This document shows, one piece after another, positions 460-32,840 of a stretch of DNA of 32,840 nt; position 1 is the stretch's first letter; each line of letters starts with the position of its first letter. The position numbers and the translations under genes are program-made. The stretch covers positions 1-32,840 of the forward strand of contig RBNJ01000331.1 of the NCBI GenBank assembly GCA_003990765.1, read 5' to 3'. Below the pieces are notes generated by a model. It made no database searches. It was not told the origin of the DNA and saw nothing but the letters and a program-made list of their open reading frames with translations. The DNA is from Jimgerdemannia flammicorona (lineage: Eukaryota).

Positions 460-1976
460 TTACTCCTCATCGTCCTCGGCATCATTAGCGGCGCTCAACC
501 TCCTTTCCTTCTCGGTCTCGAGCTGACCATAGAGCAGATAGAGGGCCTTCTCGTTCGCCTCGGTAGACCCAACAATAGTGAACATGCGCTCGCCGGTCTC
601 ATCGTGGGGGACTTTAGCAATAGAAATACGAGAGCCGGAGAGGCGACGGATCTCGGAGATTTTGGAGCCAGCCTTGCCAATGATGCAGCCAACCATATCG
701 CTGGGGATGGAAATGTTCTGCTGGCGGAGGTTGGAGTTGTTGACGAAAGATTGGGAGGACGTGGATTCACGACGGGAGCCCGGGTAGCTGGGCTCGCCGC
801 TGGTGGAATTGGGACGGCTGCTGAAGTCGCTACCGTTTCCGGTACGGGTGATGGAGGCGCGGCGGTCGCCCGGGAAGCCGCTCTGGCCCGTCACGCGAGT
901 GGCCGGGTTATACAGGACCGTGCCTACGCCGCGCTCCCAGTCCTCCACGAGGCACTTGCCAATCTCCCAGAGGGCGACGCGGATGGCCTCCACGGTACCT
1001 TGGACTTCGACGACGCGTTCCGTGCTCTGCGGGAGCATCTCCTTGGAGGCGACCATGCGCGCGCCGGAGACGTCCTGGATGTGCTTAATCTTGAGGCCCT
1101 GGCGACCGATGACGGTGCCCATCAGGTTGTGTGAAATAAGGAGGCGGACGGAGGTGATGGAGGTGGTGGCGGGCCTGGGAGTGGTAGGGCTGGTGGGCGG
1201 GCTGGTTGTGATAGGGTTCTCGAGGAGGGTCTGGGCGATGAGCGAATAGGCCTGCAAGTGATAATAGTAGCGGAATTGAATTAAAAATCGACATATGCAC
1301 GATGCACGATATATGGCTGTGCATATGGGTCCTTGTGTGATAGCGAATTTTAGGAGGCCGTGGGAAAAAGGATGTCCGAAGTTCAACCATATTTACACAT
1401 GCGCGGTACTACCCTCCTCCCTCTCCCTCCCCCGCCGCGGGCCTCAAATTGAGGGATATGCTCCCTGTCTCGAAATGAGCCCTCCACGGTAGCGTTCAAG
1501 GTCGATGCAATTGAAACCCGCAATCCAGTGCTCGCAACTTTGAGACTATTGTCCACAAAGCCGTACATTTTTTTTTTTTTTTCTTGCGTTCCCATCTCCG
1601 CAGGTTAAGCTTATTCGGGCCAAGATCACGCGTTTCCAGACCCCAGGTCCCCTCTTTTCCGGACCCACAAAAAAGGGAAAAGAGAGATATTCACCTTAGC
1701 CACCCCCTCCAAAGTCCCCGAAACGGTCAACACACGATCATGAACACCCTGGACGACTTTAGACACGCCGGCTTTGACGCCTGTGGCATCCCTGAGCTCA
1801 GCTACATTCTTGCCGCCCTTGCCAATGATGACGCCGGCTTCCTTGGTGGAGACCAAGGCGCGGAGCGTTAACTGTGACCCGGCCATCTCCTCAGCGGTTG
1901 GCTCGGCGGCATCATCCAAGTGATCGTCCAGCGGGTCGACGGAGGCGTCGGTGATGTTAATGGATTCGTTCGACAT
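460..1976 (-). CDS. Three-KH-domain RNA-binding protein (hnRNP K / poly(C)-binding; S. pombe Rnc1, yeast Hek2/Pbp2-like), 2 exons, ~357 aa
   Basis: Exon 1 runs 1976-1695 (ATG...VAK|GTGAAT) and exon 2 runs 1251-460 (TTGCAG|AYSLIAQ...TAA), with a phase-0 intron at 1252-1694. Three intact KH GxxG loops: GVIIGKGGKNV, GTVIGRQGLKI, GCIIGKAGSKI. Confidence 0.93.
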
Positions 1977-3518: not shown

Positions 3519-20171
<16,653 letters not shown>

Positions 20172-20192
20172 TTTGAATATTCGGCCTGTTCA

Positions 20193-20292: not shown

Positions 20293-20610
20293 CAATGTAT
20301 GTATGATACCTTTAGTTTTACGAAGCGATAGGTGTTTGAAGAAGAAATAGAAGGAAACGGGATCCGACAAAATGGCTCTTTTTACAGGGGTAACAAACAA
20401 AGAAACAAAGAAAAGGAGACGTCAGTGACTGGAATTTTGTATTTTCTCGCAGACTATATGATGTATGATATGATGCACACCGAAAGTATGATACGCAATG
20501 GGGTATCCGCAAGGTAACTAATATGAATAAATTTGTGGTATGGCATATGGATTTGCATTTACTGAAACCCTAGTAATATCTTAATTACGATGCATACATT
20601 TGATAAGCTT

Positions 20611-20659
20611 TCCAAGGTCACGTTGTCTCCAAGGTCACGTTGTCTCCAAGGTCACGTTG
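20611..20659. repeat. 17-bp tandem repeat x~3 (TCCAAGGTCACGTTGTC)
   Basis: Perfect copies at 20611-20627 and 20628-20644 and a 15-bp copy at 20645-20659, ending 60 bp upstream of the ATG at 20720. Confidence 0.95.
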
Positions 20660-20719
20660 GCTTCTTTTTCATTTCCTCGACAAAAACACTATTTCTATTT
20701 CTCGCCAACACTCTCAAAC

Positions 20720-22230
20720 ATGCGGTGCGCTCAATGCGAGGCAGATAAGTTGTCCGTCGAATTCCCCGAAACAGCGGTTACGGATGCCTGTGAGCACATT
20801 CCTACCAATTGCCTGCGTGTAAGTAATGCGGAAGTTTACCAGACCATGTCAAGGCGTTAATGGTTTGAAATCGCAGTTCGCCTTCATACCAGTTTGGGCA
20901 ATGTCTGGTATATCACAATGCCCAACTCTTTCTCTCCCCTCAATTACATTTCCACAGTGCTTGGCCGTACAATTCTCACAACAAAAACCGCCTAACGCTT
21001 CAAAAACAATATCGTCTAGTTTTGGCAAGACGTGTCCCGAATGTGATGTTCCGTTGTCTCAGAAAGACTGGCTTCGGTTTACGGATGCGGTTGAAGCCCC
21101 AGCTTTTGCCTTGAACGTAACTAATATTGGCGTCATAACAAATGAAAAAGGCGTGCTGCAACCGAAATCAGCCTCATTAACCGCTGCTTCATCGGCGTCG
21201 AATGCGAAGGGATCCTCGTCTACTTCCGCGGCCGAGCCGGGGCCCTTAACGACCGGGGAGTTTTATGTCGTGCTTTTGACTGGCGAGCGATTTCCATTTT
21301 CGCTTAAGAACCATACTGGTGTCCAAGCTCTTAAGACAGCGCTGAAGAAGGTTGCAAATGTGGAGCCAACCAAGCAGAAGCTGATATTTCAAGGCACCGA
21401 ATTGAATGTAAGCACAATCTCTTGTTCGTTTCTCGAACTTTACGTGTCAACAACAAGAGAAACCTACGATAGCCGCTTTCTGAACCTTACTGATCTCCAC
21501 GATCTCAGGAGCATGGTCAAGATTCGCTCGCCGCCTATGGTATAGGACCCGGTAGCTACATCCAACTCATCATCATTCTTTTCGCGATCACTTCGGGTTC
21601 ACTAGTCCGGAATGTTACCTTTCGTCTTTATTGGGGTTACCCTGCCACCGGGAAGGACTATCTTGACGGCACATGCTTGGTGTTCCGAGACGGACCGGAA
21701 GACATAATGGTGTATGATTATATGCATAGATTTCGTCCTCCTTTCCCGCATATCAAGCACTCCGGTGACGTTATGGATGACGTTGGGAAGCGCGGTAAGT
21801 CTTGAGCTCTGTTCGTCTATTTTTTCTATTGCAAATATGAGAGGATATCACGTCTCAAAGTCAAATCATAGCAAATGCTTATTAACACGCATTCCACTAC
21901 CAAGGCCATCATGAAATCGTTGTGGACCTCGCCAATCTTCCTCCAGACGTCCGGCAACTTTACTTTGTGTTGAGTTCATTCCAGTCGCCCACGATCGGTC
22001 ATTTTCCAAACCCGTCTTTCCAAATGTTCGACAGAGACAAGCCAACCGAACAGCTTTGTTCGTATACCATTGCCAACGCAAAAGATCATCAAGCCGTCAT
22101 TCTAGCATGTGTATCGAGGACTGTTCAGGGTTGGCAGGTTGCGGCTGTTGGGCGATTGTCTTTGGGCAATGTCAACGACTATGACCCCATTATAGACACT
22201 ATCACCACAATCATGTTTGATTTGGCCTAA
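20720..22230 (+). CDS. RING (C3HC4-type) + ubiquitin-like + TerD-domain protein, 4 exons, 386 aa
   Basis: Exons 20720-20818, 20958-21407, 21509-21794 and 21905-22230 (1,161 nt; GTAAG donors; phases 0, 0, 1). RING: C-x2-C-x17-C-x-H-x4-C-x2-C-x24-C-x2-C (CAQC...CEH...CLR|C...CPEC). UBL: FYVVLLTGERFPF...LKTALKKVANVEPTKQKLIFQGTELN|EHGQDSLAAYGIGPGSYIQLII. TerD: LYWG...DYLDGTCLV...IKHSGD...EIVVDLANLPPDVRQLYFVL...LCSYTI...AVILACVSR...GWQVAAVG. Confidence 0.88.
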
Positions 22231-22758
22231 GAAAATGGGTTTCTGCCGTTGATTACCTGGACATCTGGTAGCGTTGATTGCTTTATTTGGTGAACAAAAC
22301 AGATTGAAGGCCCATTTCCTTCTTTGAAGGAGCATGATGAATTCTGTACACCTGTTGATTTTTTTTGATTTTTTTTTTTTTTTTTTGATTTTTGATTTTT
22401 TTTTTATGGATCGTGTCTTTATGTTCTGCCGAAAGCCAACAGGAAAATAAAGAAATAAAGTACTATTTCGTTGCTATGTTAGAACTTCACAATGTTTCAG
22501 CTGCTAGTCAAATGATCGTGATAATTGTGTGGAATCCAGGCTATTTGTTTTGAAGCAAGAAGTACTTGACGTACGAAAGTTGGGACTCGCCCACCTATAT
22601 TATAATCGATTATCGCTTATAGGATTGCTTGTCCAACATGCACTTCCGCGGCATAGCTGACACCGTGTACCGCACCATCACAATGCGTATATACACCAGC
22701 GGAATGCTGGAATTCAATGAGTTCGTGACTGTTACAGGGTGTTGCGCTACCCTCGGCC

Positions 22759-25700: not shown

Positions 25701-28459
25701 GAACTTAGTTCATTGAACCCATCCCTGGTACATGAAAACGTCAAAGGAGTTCCATTAGATCTCTTCTAGCCAACTTTCCTCACGATACCGCCGATTAATC
25801 ATCTCTCCAACTCCCCGCACACTCACCATCCCTGCTCCCTCAGAACGGCCGCCCCTCCCACCGCCGCACCAACTCCCAATCCTGCCTCCCGGTCTCGGTC
25901 TCTGTCACGCAGGTCAGCGCGCAGGGCGAGTTCCAGCGCACGCTCTCCCTCTCGGGCTCCGATACCCCGTCCTCCCCGGCCCGTAATAAGCCCGTCTCTC
26001 TCCCGGCCAAGGTGCCGTCCTCTCCCTCTACCTCTAGCTGGCGCCCCATGTCCATACCCTCCTTCCCTTCGTTCATGCCCTCTGTCTCCCACTCAACCCC
26101 GCTCTCGTGGATGTCCTCCACCGCCACCCTGCCGTCCCCGTCGACCACGCAAGAGTCCACATCCAAGGAGGAAGCGTGCCCGAGGTCGCCCACCATTGCG
26201 TCGGGGTCGTCGTACTTTAAGACTGATATGAGGAGGACGAAGTTCTTCCCGACGTATGGGACGCCGGCTGAGATCGAAGTGGGGCGTGGGCGTGGGAGTA
26301 AGTTTTTTATCGCATGAGATGTTGGTGTTTCGTTTTTCGGGAATCTCACAGGATTGCAAGTTTAACCACTACCCTTTCCTACCACTTTGCTCGTAGTCTC
26401 CCAACTCACTCCAAACGCGAGGCGTCTATCTCCTCCCCGGCGCCGTACCACTCTACAGGGCCCGTTCCCCTCGGTGGAGTTTCTCGCGAAGCACAACGTC
26501 GAGGAGCTGACGATCCGCCAACGGCTTATGGACATTCTGGTGGAGAACGTCGCTGACTACATTATGGCATGGCGAGGGTTTACGGAGTCGCAGACCGTGA
26601 GAGCTAAGGCCGTCGAAGCCGTCGGCGCTTTCGTGCGGGGACAGGTGTGTTTCCGACGTCTTATTATCTGCTCTTTATGTAATTTTGTTCTATTTACTTA
26701 TTGGAATAACACCATAGGCTGCTTTACATGATAAATAAAAGTCTTCTCTCGTTTCCCATTCAGATTCAACAATCCAACCACCTCTGGACCACGATGGACG
26801 AGACCCGTCACATTCTGCGTTTCTCGGACTTCGCGACCTGCCGGTGCTGGAACTGCGGCGTGCTGCAGCACCGCCACCGGCGACACGGCTCGACGACCAC
26901 GCCGACCAGCTTCCTAACGCACATCTCCTCTTCGTTCTCCGAATCTCCGCGGAAGATCGACATCGCCCTCGCGCCGACCACACGCGCCGCCACTCCCGTC
27001 ACGACGCCCATGGCGCGGCAGGACAGCTACGAGGGCATGTTCTACTTCGAGCCATCGGACATGTACGAGGATGCGGACGGCACGAAGCACGAGGTCGGTG
27101 AGGCTCTGCGTCGCGTTGGCCGCGTCGCAGTCGTGTTCCCGGTCGTGTCGCCGGAGCCGGAGCCCGAGCGTCGTGCTGAATCGTTGGTGTTGCAGCAGGC
27201 GGCGGCGAGGGAGGATCGGGCATCAGAGGTTGCTATCTTGCGCGAGCATGTGCACGCGTATAAGTTGCTAGAGGGGATGTATCGAGCGCTGCATGAACTT
27301 GGGTTGCCGTTTCCGGAGGGGTTCCATACTGCGTTTGCGGTGGCGGGATTCCATACAATGACAAGGAGGTGAGCGAGGGTGTGGATGTACTTGCGGAGTG
27401 GGATATTGGACCGGTTGACGAGTATTATGAATGTATATCAATTCTCCTGGTAAACGCTACAGGAGGTTCTTGCAGTTCGTCCAGCAGGGCGTGTTCAGGT
27501 AACGTGATGGTCTGGTGGATTGTCTCCGAGGTGCTGGGATTTTCTCGGGAGTGGCTATCCAGAGCGAAACCCTGGGCTCAATTTTTCTCGCTTGTCTTCC
27601 TGGACTATCACCAGAATGACGGACGCCTTCATGCAGCATGTCATCGAGATATTTGAAGGATCGTTTGACAAAGAGGATGTGCAGTTCAAGATGGCATTGG
27701 TGGCCGAAGTTCAGGATACGGTACGGTATTTTGGATGATTGGCCTGGATGGGGATTTTTTTTTTTTCCAGTAACAGATTACTTGACGATTTCTCTGTGGT
27801 TTATTTGAATGGGTGTGCTACAGAGCAAAATACGACTGCAAAAGCAGATGCCTGAATATGCACCATATCCTTTCGATGACAGTACTAATTCGTGCGTTTT
27901 GTCGGCTAGGACCGGGCTTTGTAAGTTATGGGGCTGCATGAGAAGAAAATCGCTGTTACCATTTTGTGTTTGGTTTGAAAGAGCTCCTTAACTTTGAATT
28001 CTTTGCCGACATGATCTGATTCTTTCGAACACACTCGTCACCGAGGAGAAGCTAGCCACGTTCTTCGATTCAGGTCCGTATTCCTATCCAATTCCTCAAT
28101 GCGTCGTCCCATCTTCCACCCATCTCCCGTTTGACAATATGAGATGAAATTTTTCAAAAAGAGATAGGCTAAGGTACTTATTAATAAACTTCGCCTCATA
28201 TTATCTCCAATTAGTCCCCGCGTCGACCTACCAATCCGCTGACCCGGATAACGCCAGCTTCACTCTTATCGACTTGCTCAACCCGCCGCCATCGCCTGGG
28301 CTAGGCGAAAAACCGACACCAAGATCGGTCGCGGACAACCGCGATGAATTTCTACCGTTCGCGGCCTTCTGTCAGAGCCTGAAGGGGAAGGGGTACGAGG
28401 ACGTGGCGGGTGTGAGAAATGCGGTGGTGGTTGGGGGAGGTTCTTTGGCGAGACTGTGA
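22759..28459 (+). CDS. GSAP: Gamma-secretase-activating protein (GSAP/pigeon)-like, roughly 20 exons
   Basis: Blocks colinear with animal GSAP as I recall it: MLSFDTDFDLIHDLTPLFR (N-terminus), IGLYDLRT, HSLLLFVH, GFLWAQWSVQNRTLYYL (~23830-23880), LFVYLPGSSFMLV (~24604-24642), CLLDTTTRIAHRARLS (~24948), WKEYLIG (~25250), and the C-terminal GSAP-16-like AYKLLEGMYRALHELGLPFPEGFHTAFAVAG (~27256-27348), FLQFVQQGVF|RMTDAF...FKMALV. Many phase-compatible GT-AG introns, e.g. 23084-23197, 24485-24595, 24680-24779. The last exons and the stop at 28457-28459 are less certain. Confidence 0.8.
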
Positions 28460-29945
28460 TAAAGAGGTGGTGGAGATGTATGGCATGTTAAAGCTATAGT
28501 AAAATACAGATTGGCGGCTGAGCACACAGGACTCGCGCATGTTGTCAATGAGGCGATTGAGTCACTCCCGAGGAGGAAGACGCGTGTTTTCCTTCATGGC
28601 CAATTATGATTTGTGGATGAAACTCTCACTACATGTTGTGATGCCTAGTGCCGCCGAGCATGTCCGACATCACCAAGTATGGTACAGATATGTATTTTCA
28701 GTGTCATTCGCGGTGACACCATGCAACAGATCTTTGCAATCGGGACATCGGAATAATGGGGCATTTATATCGTTTAAGCTGGTTGCAGCGTACGACCCTA
28801 TTTCTTAAGCTACATGCAGCCAAAAAAAAAAAAAAAGTGTACATTGATCGCATCATCCGTCACTCTCTCGACCATCAATGCTTCCTTTTGGTTGGAGTAT
28901 CGAAGGACCACGGAATTATGGCAGCACGGGGTGGTGACTTTGGACCGCCCCCTGTCAGCTCTGTGAACAGCTCCTCCTCCATCTTTGGTATGTGACAACT
29001 ATTGACGACTGGCGCGCAATCCCTTACCATTTTCTAAATAATTCATGTTAGTATAGACATATTCATTCTTTCCCTTTCAAGTGCAAAAAACATAATAGAG
29101 AATAACTCACTTTCATTTGCCAAATGCTTTTCAATAACTTGAAAAGATCTCGTAAGTTTTCCACGACGATGGGGACTTCGCGTAGCTCATCTCGTTCGAG
29201 AAGACATACATAGCCATCTGGATGGCTCATTTGCAGAACTTGGCACTTAAGTCCTGTGTTTGAGAATAGTTTCAATGCTTATGTTACCATTTTTAGTACT
29301 CAACCATATCTATAGATGTAACTTGCAGTGATCCAATTATAACCTTTAATGAGTGAACTGCTCAGAGCACTAACAATTATGCAGAAACTTTTTGTACTTG
29401 TGTAACTTACCTGAGTTCACCAACCCAACTACCTGTAGCTTCTTCACCAATGAACCTTGGTGATCCACAAGCACTTCAAGATGGAACAGTATATTGTGAA
29501 GGGTCTTTACCAGCTTAAGGTTGTCAGTAAGCCACTTTGTTGACTTCATACCTTGAAAGCTCTTTGCAACCTCAACTGTACCATACTCATAATATGCATC
29601 AGTATCAGTTTTTACAATTGTGTCTAGCCATTGACCAATCTTCAAATGATCTTTCTTTTCCATTCTCACTCTTTTCCTATTTTTTCTCATTGTTGTTATA
29701 AGAGAAGATAACTCCTTACTATATATAAGATGATCAAGATATTAGATGTATGAGTACAAACACTAACAAAATGATCAGAGAACATATATCATACAGTTTC
29801 CATATTGCAAAGCATAATCAACAATGAAAGACTAGATATTTAAATTATATCAGCCCTCTAGATATGATTTTTAAAGAAGTTGGTCAGAACTCTCAAATAG
29901 TGGAAGTCTATATTAAAGAAAAAAGAAGGTCATTATATTATAGAG

Positions 29946-30006
<61 letters not shown>
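29946..30006. repeat. ~61-nt poly(A) run followed by (GA)n
   Basis: Directly visible. Confidence 0.9.
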
Positions 30007-30009
<3 letters not shown>

Positions 30010-30817
30010 AGAGAGAGAGATATACATTTTGTATATAATTAGATTGACTTACTCAGCATCATAATGTTTCTTATGATTATATGGTTTATTATTTAATTAA
30101 TAAGAGATCATCTCTAGAATCTCTCAGAGCCCAGATATTATTGTCACCTATATTTTTTTAGAAACATAAATATCTGCACCAGGAGAAAGAAAAGAGAAAA
30201 TATATTAATCCACCCTAGCAAATCTTGATATCAACTTCACTATTTATATATAAAGCTATAGTAGAAATAATGTTTAACTACTGATCTCTTTCCAATCTAC
30301 TAGAGAGAACAGAGACATAACTTCATGATTATTGAGATAAATGACCTACAAATAGACTAGTGACTTTATACTTATGTTTTTATATTTTTTAAAAATTACA
30401 TCCTCTACTATCATTCCACTAGAGAGTACTTATTTTCAGATAGAATCTATATCTTTGTAGGTCTTTAGAAAAGAAGCTTTAGCCTCAAAAGAGTTATCAT
30501 TTTTATTCATTGAAGACTCATCTATATCATCCTTCTCATTCTCATTATAAGCTTCATATTTACTATCTTCATCTTTTTTATAATCACTATTGATCTTGTC
30601 TATATAAGGAAGTAAATTAAATTATAGAATTTTCAAAAAGATCTAGTAATATATAAAACTTATCTCAAGGTGGACATAGTATCAATATCATCTTTATAGT
30701 CTTAATATGAATCAAACTCAATTCTATTTAAATATAAATAGAAGTTCTAATTATAATAAAAGGTATACTAACCTCTCTATATAACTTTCTTTTCTCTTAC
30801 TAGTCAGAACTCTCTAA

Positions 30818-31336
30818 ATAGTACTCTGAATAAGCTGATCTCATCTGGATTGATTTAAATCAACCATTGTTTTAATTTCCAAATTAGATAATTAAATATT
30901 TATATTAATAACTTGATAAATAATCATCCAATTTTAATTATCTTGGTATTATTTAAAAACCCTTAATAAGGCCTTTCTAATGATACTAAAAATATTGAAA
31001 TTAAATTATATATTGCTGAGTTATTAAGAAAAACATCTGACTTGCCAATTTTGGAATTTATTGACTTATCAATTTTGGAAATTTCTTCAAAAGAATATTT
31101 TCATTAAAAGCTCAGATCTGATTTTAATGGTCTTGATATCATTATAAAGACCCTATTAAGATCTTTCAAATGACACCAAGATTATCAAAATTGGATAATT
31201 ATTTATTGAGTTATTAATATAAATATTTAATTATCTAATTTAGAAATTAAAATAATAGTTGATTTGAATTAATCTGGATAGGATTTAAATCTTATCTAAA
31301 TCCATCTAGATTAAATTGACTCATTCAGAGTACTAT
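30818..31336. mobile_element. MITE/foldback-like non-autonomous element with long terminal inverted repeats
   Basis: The termini ATAGTACTCTGAAT (30818-30831) and ATTCAGAGTACTAT (31323-31336) are exact reverse complements. Arms at ~30860-30985 and ~31135-31262 align in inverted orientation, including a perfect 32-mer AAATTAGATAATTAAATATTTATATTAATAAC. There is no ORF. Confidence 0.8.
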
Positions 31337-32840
31337 CTTTAAGTATTTCTCAAAAATGAAATAAACTAAAAATCTAGTCAATTTGTACTATACTAATCTT
31401 TGGCAAGTTAGTGATCAGGCTGAGTATAAAAGTTATAGAATATTTGTACTATTTCTTGATCAAAATTCTTCTAGTCCTTTCTACAATTCTCATCACATTG
31501 AGTTGATGAAGAGTCTTGAACATCAGGTAAGCTAAGAACTCATCTATATACTCTAATACTGGTTTTGTGACTCAATAAAGAGTCTTGAATGACAAGAAGC
31601 TAGAAGCTCTCTATCATACTACTATTTCTCTAAGTTTCAGACAAAAAGAAGCTTACTTTTCTATATCTATCAAGAAAGAGCTTCACTCTTTTATATCTTT
31701 TATCTCATTTATACTTCATAATATTCTTAAGAGATTTGAAATATTTATCTATTTTTAGCTTAAATGGCTCTATATTACATTTATTTAGGAATCTGAATAT
31801 ATCTTATTTTGTAGGTATATAATCAAAATATTTATATATTCTTTTTCTGAATATGAACTAGAAGGATAAAATGAGTTATCACTATATTAGATCAGGAGTA
31901 AAATGTCCATTATGAGTAAAAAGAAAGAAAATACTAGTGAGAAAAAACATAAAAGAAAGATATACATACTATATAATCTAATTAATTATCAATAGTATAG
32001 TATAAAACTTATATTAAATAGGAGAATTAATGGAAATAAAAGATGGGTATATTATAGATATGAAAAAAATAAGTAAAAGTTTTTTTCTATTAATAATATT
32101 ATTATCATACAATACTCTTGATTTTTAAAACTATATTTTACCTAATTATACTTCTAGCAGATATATCAAATATAAAAAGATTACTTATAAAAGTACTATT
32201 ATATAGTTCTAGAAGGATTTTTTTGAAAGTTCTAGATATTCTGGAAGACTATTTTCTTAAGGTTAAGATCAATTTCATATAGAGTATATCCTCTATACTT
32301 ATTGATTTTAAGATTGGATTGATATTTCAACTAAAGTTCTTTTTTGGACTTATTTTGGATATTCAGAATTTGAAAGTTCAAGAAACTAAGACCAGCTTAG
32401 TTGAATTGACATATTACTATAGACAATACCTAATTAGGAAATTACATGATATAGTTAGGAGTGAGATCTAATAGGGTACAGATTTACTTAAGAGTGATTT
32501 GTGGATTATTAAATAAAAGTAGTTATGTGAAGAAATATTATAGAGAAGTATTCAGGAGTATATTCAAATTATTCAAGTCTGAGTTTCTGAGATCTGAAGA
32601 AGAGAGTATTTATACTAATGGAGGGCTATCTAGACTATGCTAAATATAGATATAGTACTTAGTATATTGCTGAGTTAGAATATAGTCATATAGTATAAGT
32701 GTGAACTGATATATTAAAAGATTACCTGACTGCTGAGTCAGTATATAGTTATATCATATAAGACTAATCTAACCATACTAATAACTGTTAAGCTATCTAT
32801 AGATTTAGATACTGTCTGAGTAGTTTTTTTTTTTTTTTTT

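Follow-up and report, generated by a model that had tools for sequence, protein, structure and literature searches.

In bacteria, TerD is a widespread domain of stress response and phage defence. A eukaryotic TerD protein, the cAMP-binding protein CABP1 of Dictyostelium, is said to bind nucleotide and has neither a RING finger nor a ubiquitin-like domain (UBL). A UBL is, on the other side, also contained in parkin and HOIL-1, two ubiquitin ligases of the RBR type. For Klebsiella TerD, an excerpt of a published report lists positions 40, 41, 42, 78, 79 and 89 as ligands of calcium Ca1 and positions 29, 82, 84 and 88 as ligands of Ca2 (PMC8779313), and in an excerpt of another report one group proposed that TerD recognises specialised nucleotide derivatives (PMC7159879). 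Here we describe a gene at positions 20,720 to 22,230 of a 32,840-nt stretch of DNA (contig RBNJ01000331.1, positions 1 to 32,840 of the forward strand, assembly GCA_003990765.1; the window, below) from Jimgerdemannia flammicorona, a mycorrhizal fungus of the Endogonales. The locus is a real, expressed four-exon gene, and its product combines a RING finger, a UBL and a TerD domain.

By sequence comparison, RING-UBL-TerD proteins are an old, uncharacterised eukaryotic family, and this family, rather than the locus, is the object of interest. With moderate confidence, based on sequences and structure models, we propose that the protein is a member of this family that acts as a ligand- or substrate-directed RING ubiquitin ligase. 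In the proposed mechanism, TerD would bind either a substrate or a small ligand, the latter being a metal ion or a nucleotide-like molecule, the bacterial calcium site of TerD having presumably been remodelled to a conserved H-S-G-D...G-H-H motif. The RING would recruit a ubiquitin-conjugating enzyme (E2) charged with ubiquitin, and the UBL would help to hold the E2 or would anchor the protein at the proteasome or another ubiquitin receptor. The ubiquitin ligase (E3) activity, the TerD ligand and the role of the UBL that we infer are the most likely ones. The description as a "TerD-guided ubiquitin ligase", given in an initial annotation of this DNA, is thus plausible, and it would fit both the architecture and the sister fusions of TerD to E2 and F-box domains. 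The physical tie of TerD to RING and UBL, and in sister families to an E2 core and an F-box, provides a testable setting for the ligand of a histidine-rich pocket, and it raises the question of whether ligand binding by the TerD pocket controls ubiquitin transfer.

The same annotation considered the domain architecture to be unusual, which our searches contradict. Among 291 proteins, all retrieved as relatives of this protein, the RING pattern was present in 143, the TerD motif in 228 and both in 123, and the relatives span fungi, animals and Amoebozoa. A search with the whole protein gave 37 matches, and all the named ones belong to the Endogonales (Jimgerdemannia, Endogone) or the Glomeromycotina (Rhizophagus, Diversispora, Gigaspora, Acaulospora, Paraglomus, Ambispora and others), with several paralogues per species; both plant-symbiotic lineages of the Mucoromycota retain the family, often as multiple copies. 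When the TerD part was searched exhaustively by phmmer, 742 representatives reached E ≤ 0.001, of which 309 had E ≤ 1e-10 and 36 had E ≤ 1e-30. The best 150 of these 742 matches all had E < 1e-17, and when 73 of the 150 were scanned with Pfam, TerD was found in 69 and a ubiquitin domain also in 36. Using a profile of 26 distant RING-UBL-TerD representatives, we retrieved 310 proteins at E ≤ 1e-5. The best 120 of these 310, from which the taxa were taken, include Cnidaria (Stylophora, Nematostella, Exaiptasia, Acropora, Dendronephthya, Xenia and others), Mollusca (Haliotis, Mytilus, Crassostrea, Pinctada, Mercenaria and others), Brachiopoda (Lingula), Echinodermata (Amphiura, Acanthaster, Anneissia), Cephalochordata (Branchiostoma) and Amoebozoa (Arcella). 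The named animal and amoeba relatives among them are labelled "uncharacterized" or "Ubiquitin-like domain-containing". Yeasts, insects, nematodes and vertebrates had no named match among the 37 whole-protein matches and the best 120 profile matches, and this apparent absence would explain why the family is unstudied.

We found no paper on a RING-UBL-TerD family, within a coverage that did not include the article on Ter systems by Anantharaman, Iyer and Aravind (2012), which may mention eukaryotic fusions. Among publications joining TerD with RING, ubiquitin and eukaryotes, none concerned this architecture as judged by title and abstract, and a search for TerD together with F-box returned no paper. 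The term "TerD domain-containing" led to phage and bacterial subjects among the matches listed. In the only paper found to mention "TerD domain", RING, ubiquitin and eukaryotes together, TerD was named once, as a nucleotide-binding domain.

The coding sequence, read from the window and spliced by script, lies on the plus strand in four exons totalling 1161 nt and encodes 386 amino acids (Table 1); the donors of all three introns are of the GTAAG type. The spliced product is identical at every residue to the protein P0001, the single longer protein retrieved by a search with exon 2 alone and the NCBI entry [quoted passage not shown], so that the gene model is already present in public annotation. 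The initial annotation had recognised a gene hidden from the open reading frames (ORFs), with the RING split by intron 1 (between CLR and C), the UBL by intron 2 and TerD by intron 3, and the spliced model agrees with it. Intron 3 is placed immediately before the conserved His pair of TerD, and exon 4 alone scores 34.8 bits to TerD. Retention of intron 1 leads to an in-frame stop (ORF 20585..20860), and only splicing of this intron restores the C31-L-R-C34 pair that is common to all relatives.

RNA contigs of four public runs (X1, X2, X3 and X5; that X2 is RNA was guessed) were considered for placement on the gene. A contig of run X2 (1102 nt, depth 122.5, 0 differing letters) spans 20961-21407, 21509-21793 and 21904-22267 and omits exactly introns 2 and 3. 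Its joint 21407>21509 skips 101 nt and the second joint 110 nt, both with GT..AG borders, in agreement with the predicted splicing of these two introns. A contig from the metatranscriptome X5, representing a relative that is 95-99% alike, also lacks intron 3, and a 151-nt piece from the root metatranscriptome X3 is identical to exon 2 (20982-21132). No contig of run X1 was placed on the gene, despite the presence of 0.61 of the sampled words in that run. In none of the four runs did a contig span intron 1, which is predicted from the reading frame, the identity with P0001 and homology. There are hints that J. flammicorona or a near-identical strain is active in roots. Small shares of sampled words were present in the root metatranscriptomes X4, X6 and X7.

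In the protein, the RING (residues 1-80) is followed by a disordered linker, the UBL (about 130-207) and TerD (about 215-386). The full AlphaFold2 model had a mean predicted local distance difference test (pLDDT) score of 77.7, with most of the TerD part above 90 and the Ser/Ala-rich linker below 50 at residues 81-129. The UBL matched the Pfam ubiquitin family PF00240 over residues 138-205 with 38.9 bits (cut-off 25.4), and in Foldseek its model matched ubiquitin and NEDD8 chains with a target template-modelling (TM) score of about 0.9 and, for ubiquitin, a root-mean-square deviation of about 1.7. It aligns with ubiquitin through the stretch ...KQKLIFQGTEL..., in which KQKLIF lies over QQRLIF, and the Leu-Ile-Phe of the ubiquitin hydrophobic patch is retained. 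The UBL terminus, ...IQLIIILFA, has no Gly-Gly and runs on into TerD. Among 131 proteins with the RING pattern and the TerD-start motif, only five contain GG within 25 residues ahead of TerD. The UBL is thus an integral domain and no conjugatable modifier, as the annotation had stated.

Sister architectures were found in the same TerD search. TerD is combined with UQ_con in P0140 and P0173, with an F-box in P0178, and with VWA, RING and UBL in P0129; WGR+TerD, EF-hand+TerD and EF-hand+Ank+TerD proteins and large multi-TerD proteins were also retrieved. The nearest Atlas cluster of P0140 (score 0.96) has 51 members, with Ascomycota as the commonest phylum; 98% of the members have UQ_con, 82% have TerD and 69% have F-box-like. 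Like the family described here, these ascomycete UBC-core+F-box+TerD proteins join TerD to domains of the ubiquitin system; they differ in being about 750-1050 amino acids long and in having an E2-like core and an F-box where this family has RING and UBL. Their TerD motif reads H-S-G-D-V-x-D...G-x-H, so that of the His pair the second alone is retained. The independent fusions to RING, E2 core and F-box are the main argument for TerD as a recognition or sensing module in ubiquitin transfer.

Other combinations of domains occur among the retrieved proteins. P0026 and P0032 from Rhizophagus irregularis consist of protein kinase, UBL and TerD, and P0043 combines a short-chain dehydrogenase with UBL and TerD and may be a gene-model fusion. 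In P0004 from Diversispora epigaea (498 amino acids), most of the RING is missing and the UBL end and the TerD block are repeated, which reflects a tandem duplication or else a gene model that was wrongly assembled. Among P0135, P0153, P0170, P0164 and P0169 (970-2625 amino acids) are very large proteins with two to four TerD stretches, some together with fibronectin type III, and others that combine CHB_HEX_C or Fn3_assoc with TerD.

The N-terminal region follows the pattern C3-x2-C6-x17-C24-x-H26-x4-C31-x2-C34-x24-C59-x2-C62. In an alignment of the N-terminal regions of 41 relatives (27-57% identity), all eight C3HC4 ligands are invariant, as are M1 and L11, and K10, E14, F15 and P16 are conserved in at least 90%. 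The C3HC4 pattern was found in 64 of 180 relatives in an earlier count, before the final set of 291. A profile of the family N terminus matched RING proteins among PDB sequences, namely RNF4 (E 2.9e-8 for a tandem chain and 1.9e-4 for a single RING), RING1B-BMI1 (4.7e-6) and BRCA1 (1.5e-4), and further BRE1, COP1, TRIM31, RNF8 and RAD18; for RNF4, BRCA1, RING1B/BMI1 and BRE1 the E values range from 2.9e-8 to 1e-3. A separate model of residues 1-80 reached a pLDDT of 82.6, and one homologue carries the UniRef label "RING-type domain-containing protein". We accept the N-terminal domain, on its sequence and model, as a putative RING-HC finger that is nearest in shape to the RING1 of RBR ligases. 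The RING call of the annotation is supported by its invariant ligands, by the profile matches and by the model nearest to RBR-type RING1, and not by a Pfam match: the best Pfam RING model for P0001, RING_XB3, had E 5.6, and none was above threshold. Scores close to the cut-off were obtained for P0044 (20.6 vs 21) and P0070 (23.5 vs 27.3).

Several observations count against the ligase reading. Statistical support for the RING is weak, as the Pfam result for P0001 shows. When 34 relatives were scanned, four to seven of them matched each Pfam RING model, all below threshold, and Foldseek gave no match to the N-terminal model at E ≤ 0.001, HHARI being top of the list with E 0.37. The spacing from His to C5 is four residues instead of the usual two or three. 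The position two residues after C1, which is normally hydrophobic in E2-binding RINGs, is Q, K, N, G, L, S, E and R in 8, 8, 8, 4, 3, 3, 2 and 1 of the 41 sequences, and the "linchpin" position after C8 is mixed (N in 6, K in 6, D in 5, H in 4, and others), with Asp in the protein studied here. Given these two positions, the RING could be an inactive or partner-dependent finger. Which RING positions count for E2 binding is judged here from the general literature. Furthermore, the co-occurrence of domains is only circumstantial evidence of function.

RBR RING1 domains (HHARI/ARIH1, ARIH2, HOIP, HOIL-1, parkin) have the same C3HC4 ligand order, and they were the nearest model matches, although the scores are low on an absolute scale. 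The HHARI domain closes with C-P-x3-C, and so does that of some family members. Pfam identified no IBR or RING2 in this protein, and there is no Cys-rich region beyond residue 62. As both the IBR and a RING2 with its catalytic cysteine are missing, the protein is not an RBR ligase. With canonical RING-HC fingers (RNF4, BRCA1, RING1B/BMI1, BRE1) the family shares the ligand pattern and the Pro after C7; it differs from them by the insertion of two residues between His and C5, by a polar residue at the E2 contact and by the lack of a conserved linchpin.

It is conceivable, though on balance unlikely, that the protein is a non-catalytic adaptor. Its RING would then be a structural or partner-binding zinc module without E2-activating power of its own, comparable to the inactive halves of RING heterodimers, and the protein would either bring cargo bound by TerD to ubiquitin receptors as a UBL shuttle or serve another ligase as a regulatory subunit. 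The polar E2-contact positions and the unconserved linchpin are consistent with such a role, and so is the resemblance to the RING1 of RBR ligases, which does no more than dock E2s and depends on the IBR and RING2 that are absent here. The ubiquitin-like surface retained on the UBL would suit a shuttle, and an invariant loop specific to the family, K10-L11-S-x-E14-F15-P16, suggests a dedicated partner. However, the eight zinc ligands do not vary between fungi, animals and an amoeba, and 34 of the 41 sequences retain the Pro after C7. The sister architectures, moreover, place the same type of TerD beside an E2 core or an F-box and thus point to active conjugation machinery.

The annotation also predicted a TerD domain, on which all analyses agree. 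Residues 264-362 matched PF02342 with 39.1 bits (cut-off 25.3). In Foldseek, the model matched 2kxt with E 1.3e-8, and 3ibz, 2qz7 and 2qng with target TM scores of 0.71-0.76 (2qng, 0.76) over 170-178 columns. A profile of 24 short subfamily members matched the PDB sequences 3ibz (E 3.5e-15) and 2kxt (2e-14); phmmer with the TerD part gave 3ibz as the sole match among PDB sequences, and 2kxt was reached by the profile only. Bacterial TerD proteins (2kxt from Klebsiella pneumoniae, 3ibz from Streptomyces coelicolor) and the protein described here have in common the beta-sandwich fold, the Pfam family and the motifs W...D-x-L-D and H-[ST]-G-D. Unlike them, this protein is eukaryotic, has introns in its gene, is fused to RING and UBL and is not encoded in a ter operon.

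We mapped the Klebsiella calcium sites by a HMMER alignment to chain 2kxt_A, assuming that the chain numbering equals that of PMC8779313. This assumption is supported by the residues on which the listed positions fall, namely W29, D40, L41, D42, D78, N79, G82, G84, D88 and E89. W29, L41, D42, D78 and G84 correspond to W225, L235, D236, D270 and G276 of the protein described here; D40 falls on a gap, and N79, G82, D88 and E89 are replaced by V271, D274, H280 and H281. The acidic stretch G-E-G-D-G-D-D-E of 2kxt lies over D-V-G-K-R-G-H-H. By this residue mapping, the two calcium sites of the Klebsiella type appear not to be preserved: with D40 deleted and a conserved His pair in place of D88 and E89, the two-calcium site is probably not intact. 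Over 273 aligned family proteins, W225 is conserved in 271 of 272, D233 in 257 of 273, D236 in 266 of 273, H267 in 270 of 271, D270 in 245 of 270, G279 in 264 of 270, H280 in 197 of 270 and H281 in 232 of 271, with Gln in a further 36. Such strong conservation suggests a pocket that is under selection and chemically unlike the bacterial calcium site. As its ligand, a softer metal or an organic molecule would be plausible.

We consider it improbable that the protein is a TerD-type stress or metal-handling protein in which RING and UBL are accessory and no ubiquitin transfer takes place. The TerD fold and family membership are solid, and the four retained positions W225, L235, D236 and D270 form part of the bacterial calcium site. 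On the other hand, the other side-chain ligands listed for Klebsiella TerD (D40, N79, D88 and E89) are not retained, the gene has introns and no Ter operon partner, and the repeated fusion of TerD to ubiquitin-system domains would be left unexplained.

A more far-reaching extension of the proposed RING ligase, which we regard as speculative and as having a low probability, is that RING-UBL-TerD proteins and the ascomycete E2/F-box-TerD proteins together constitute a eukaryotic signal-gated ubiquitylation system derived from bacterial Ter conflict systems. The remodelled H-S-G-D...G-H-H pocket would sense a nucleotide-derived or metal signal of stress or infection, and the signal would switch the ligase on. 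If true, such a system would account for the large number of paralogues in arbuscular mycorrhizal fungi, the several copies in molluscs and cnidarians, and the kinase fusions of Rhizophagus.

The descent of the family was examined in an unrooted tree, built from 73 full-length members by a quick IQ-TREE search with SH-aLRT support values, in which the deep forks have no resolution. We chose to omit partial or clearly mis-modelled rows, for example P0003, P0004, P0018, P0020 and P0031. All fungi in the tree, 19 rows, fall into one clade (99), within which two Jimgerdemannia paralogues stand beside a Glomeromycotina clade (97). Another clade (99) consists of all 30 named animal rows and five others; the Cnidaria cluster together (95), and the echinoderms and molluscs do so for the most part. 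The Arcella row groups with rows lacking a taxon. The tree follows taxonomy, as predicted by vertical descent with many losses. An old transfer between eukaryotes is possible, and TerD may have had a bacterial origin early in eukaryote history.

Scans of 185,579 prokaryotic species genomes with one pattern and six exact TerD peptides revealed no relative; these scans are so narrow that they constitute weak evidence of absence. In the Atlas, the clusters closest to the TerD part are in part eukaryotic (Mollusca; Bacillariophyta) and in part bacterial. The annotation had suggested a horizontally acquired TerD that later gained introns, and the fungal and metazoan clades together with the outcome of the scans do not bear this out. 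An architecture shared with many animal phyla and amoebae is no recent bacterial import, and recent horizontal transfer is unsupported given that no close prokaryotic relative was found. A recent entry of bacterial TerD into this fungal lineage, followed by fusion to E3 parts and then by intron gain, is therefore very improbable, even though TerD is common in bacteria, all solved structures are bacterial and one of the nearest Atlas clusters is 79% bacterial. Such an entry is at odds with the occurrence of all three domains in many animal phyla and in Arcella, with the separate fungal clade, in which Endogonales stand beside Glomeromycotina, and metazoan clade, and with the low E values of the best 150 TerD matches, among which a UBL accompanies TerD in 36 of the 73 scanned; the scans of prokaryotic genomes add a weak point.

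That the gene is an annotation artefact of two or three wrongly merged adjacent genes is hardly credible: although intron 1 is not spanned by any contig and some relatives are clearly mis-modelled (the duplicated block of P0004, the added dehydrogenase of P0043), a single contig joins exons 2, 3 and 4, and 41 of 41 relatives, which come from independent genomes, share the M-x-C-x2-C start and the RING split over intron 1.

The surroundings of the gene offer no functional hint. Neighbouring ORFs had no match to a Ter family in Pfam; they matched KH, RZ-finger, CBM_20-like and GSAP-16 families instead (Table 1). The RZ-type finger is known from RNF213 and ZNFX1. It lies among very long minus-strand ORFs that probably form one giant gene, and the 1283- and 1479-amino-acid ORFs of this region matched no Pfam family at E ≤ 0.001.

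Table 1. Positions of the exons and introns of the RING-UBL-TerD gene and of other features in the window.
Feature	Position	Strand	Remarks
Exon 1	20720-20818	+	Codons 1-33; ATG at 20720, donor CGT/GTAAGT; start codon and first half of RING with ligands C3, C6, C24, H26, C31
Intron 1	20819-20957	+	139 nt, phase 0, GT..AG; between R33 and C34
Exon 2	20958-21407	+	Codons 34-183; second half of RING with C34, C59, C62 (to ~21098), linker (~21099-21245), UBL from ~21246
Intron 2	21408-21508	+	101 nt, phase 0, GT..AG; between N183 and E184, within UBL
Exon 3	21509-21794	+	Codons 184-278 plus 1 nt; end of UBL (to ~21580), short linker, first half of TerD from ~21602 with W225, D233, D236, H267-S-G-D270
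Intron 3	21795-21904	+	110 nt, phase 1, GT..AG; inside codon G279 of TerD
Exon 4	21905-22230	+	Codons 279-386 and TAA stop; second half of TerD including H280, H281
3' untranslated region	22231-22267	+	At least 37 nt, from the X2 contig
KH-domain gene	460-1389	-	
Very long ORFs	3758-16927	-	454, 371, 1283, 1479 amino acids and others
ORF with RZ-type zinc finger	5135-6250	-	E 6.9e-17
ORF with weak CBM_20 match (at 18414-20186)	18414-20189	-	
GSAP-16 match	26710-27369	+	

At the low-coordinate end of the minus-strand ORF 18414-20189, a long homopolymer run is translated as about 40 Phe. Towards the right end of the window, at 29001-32000, the G+C content falls from about 0.45-0.55 to 0.24-0.33, which may represent repeat-rich or degraded sequence. 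Just past the 3' end of the gene lies a T-rich low-complexity run (22355-22405). Upstream, 61-109 bp from the ATG, a perfect 17-bp tandem repeat (TCCAAGGTCACGTTGTC) is present in 2.9 copies at 20611-20659, a candidate for a repeated promoter element whose core is CACGT.

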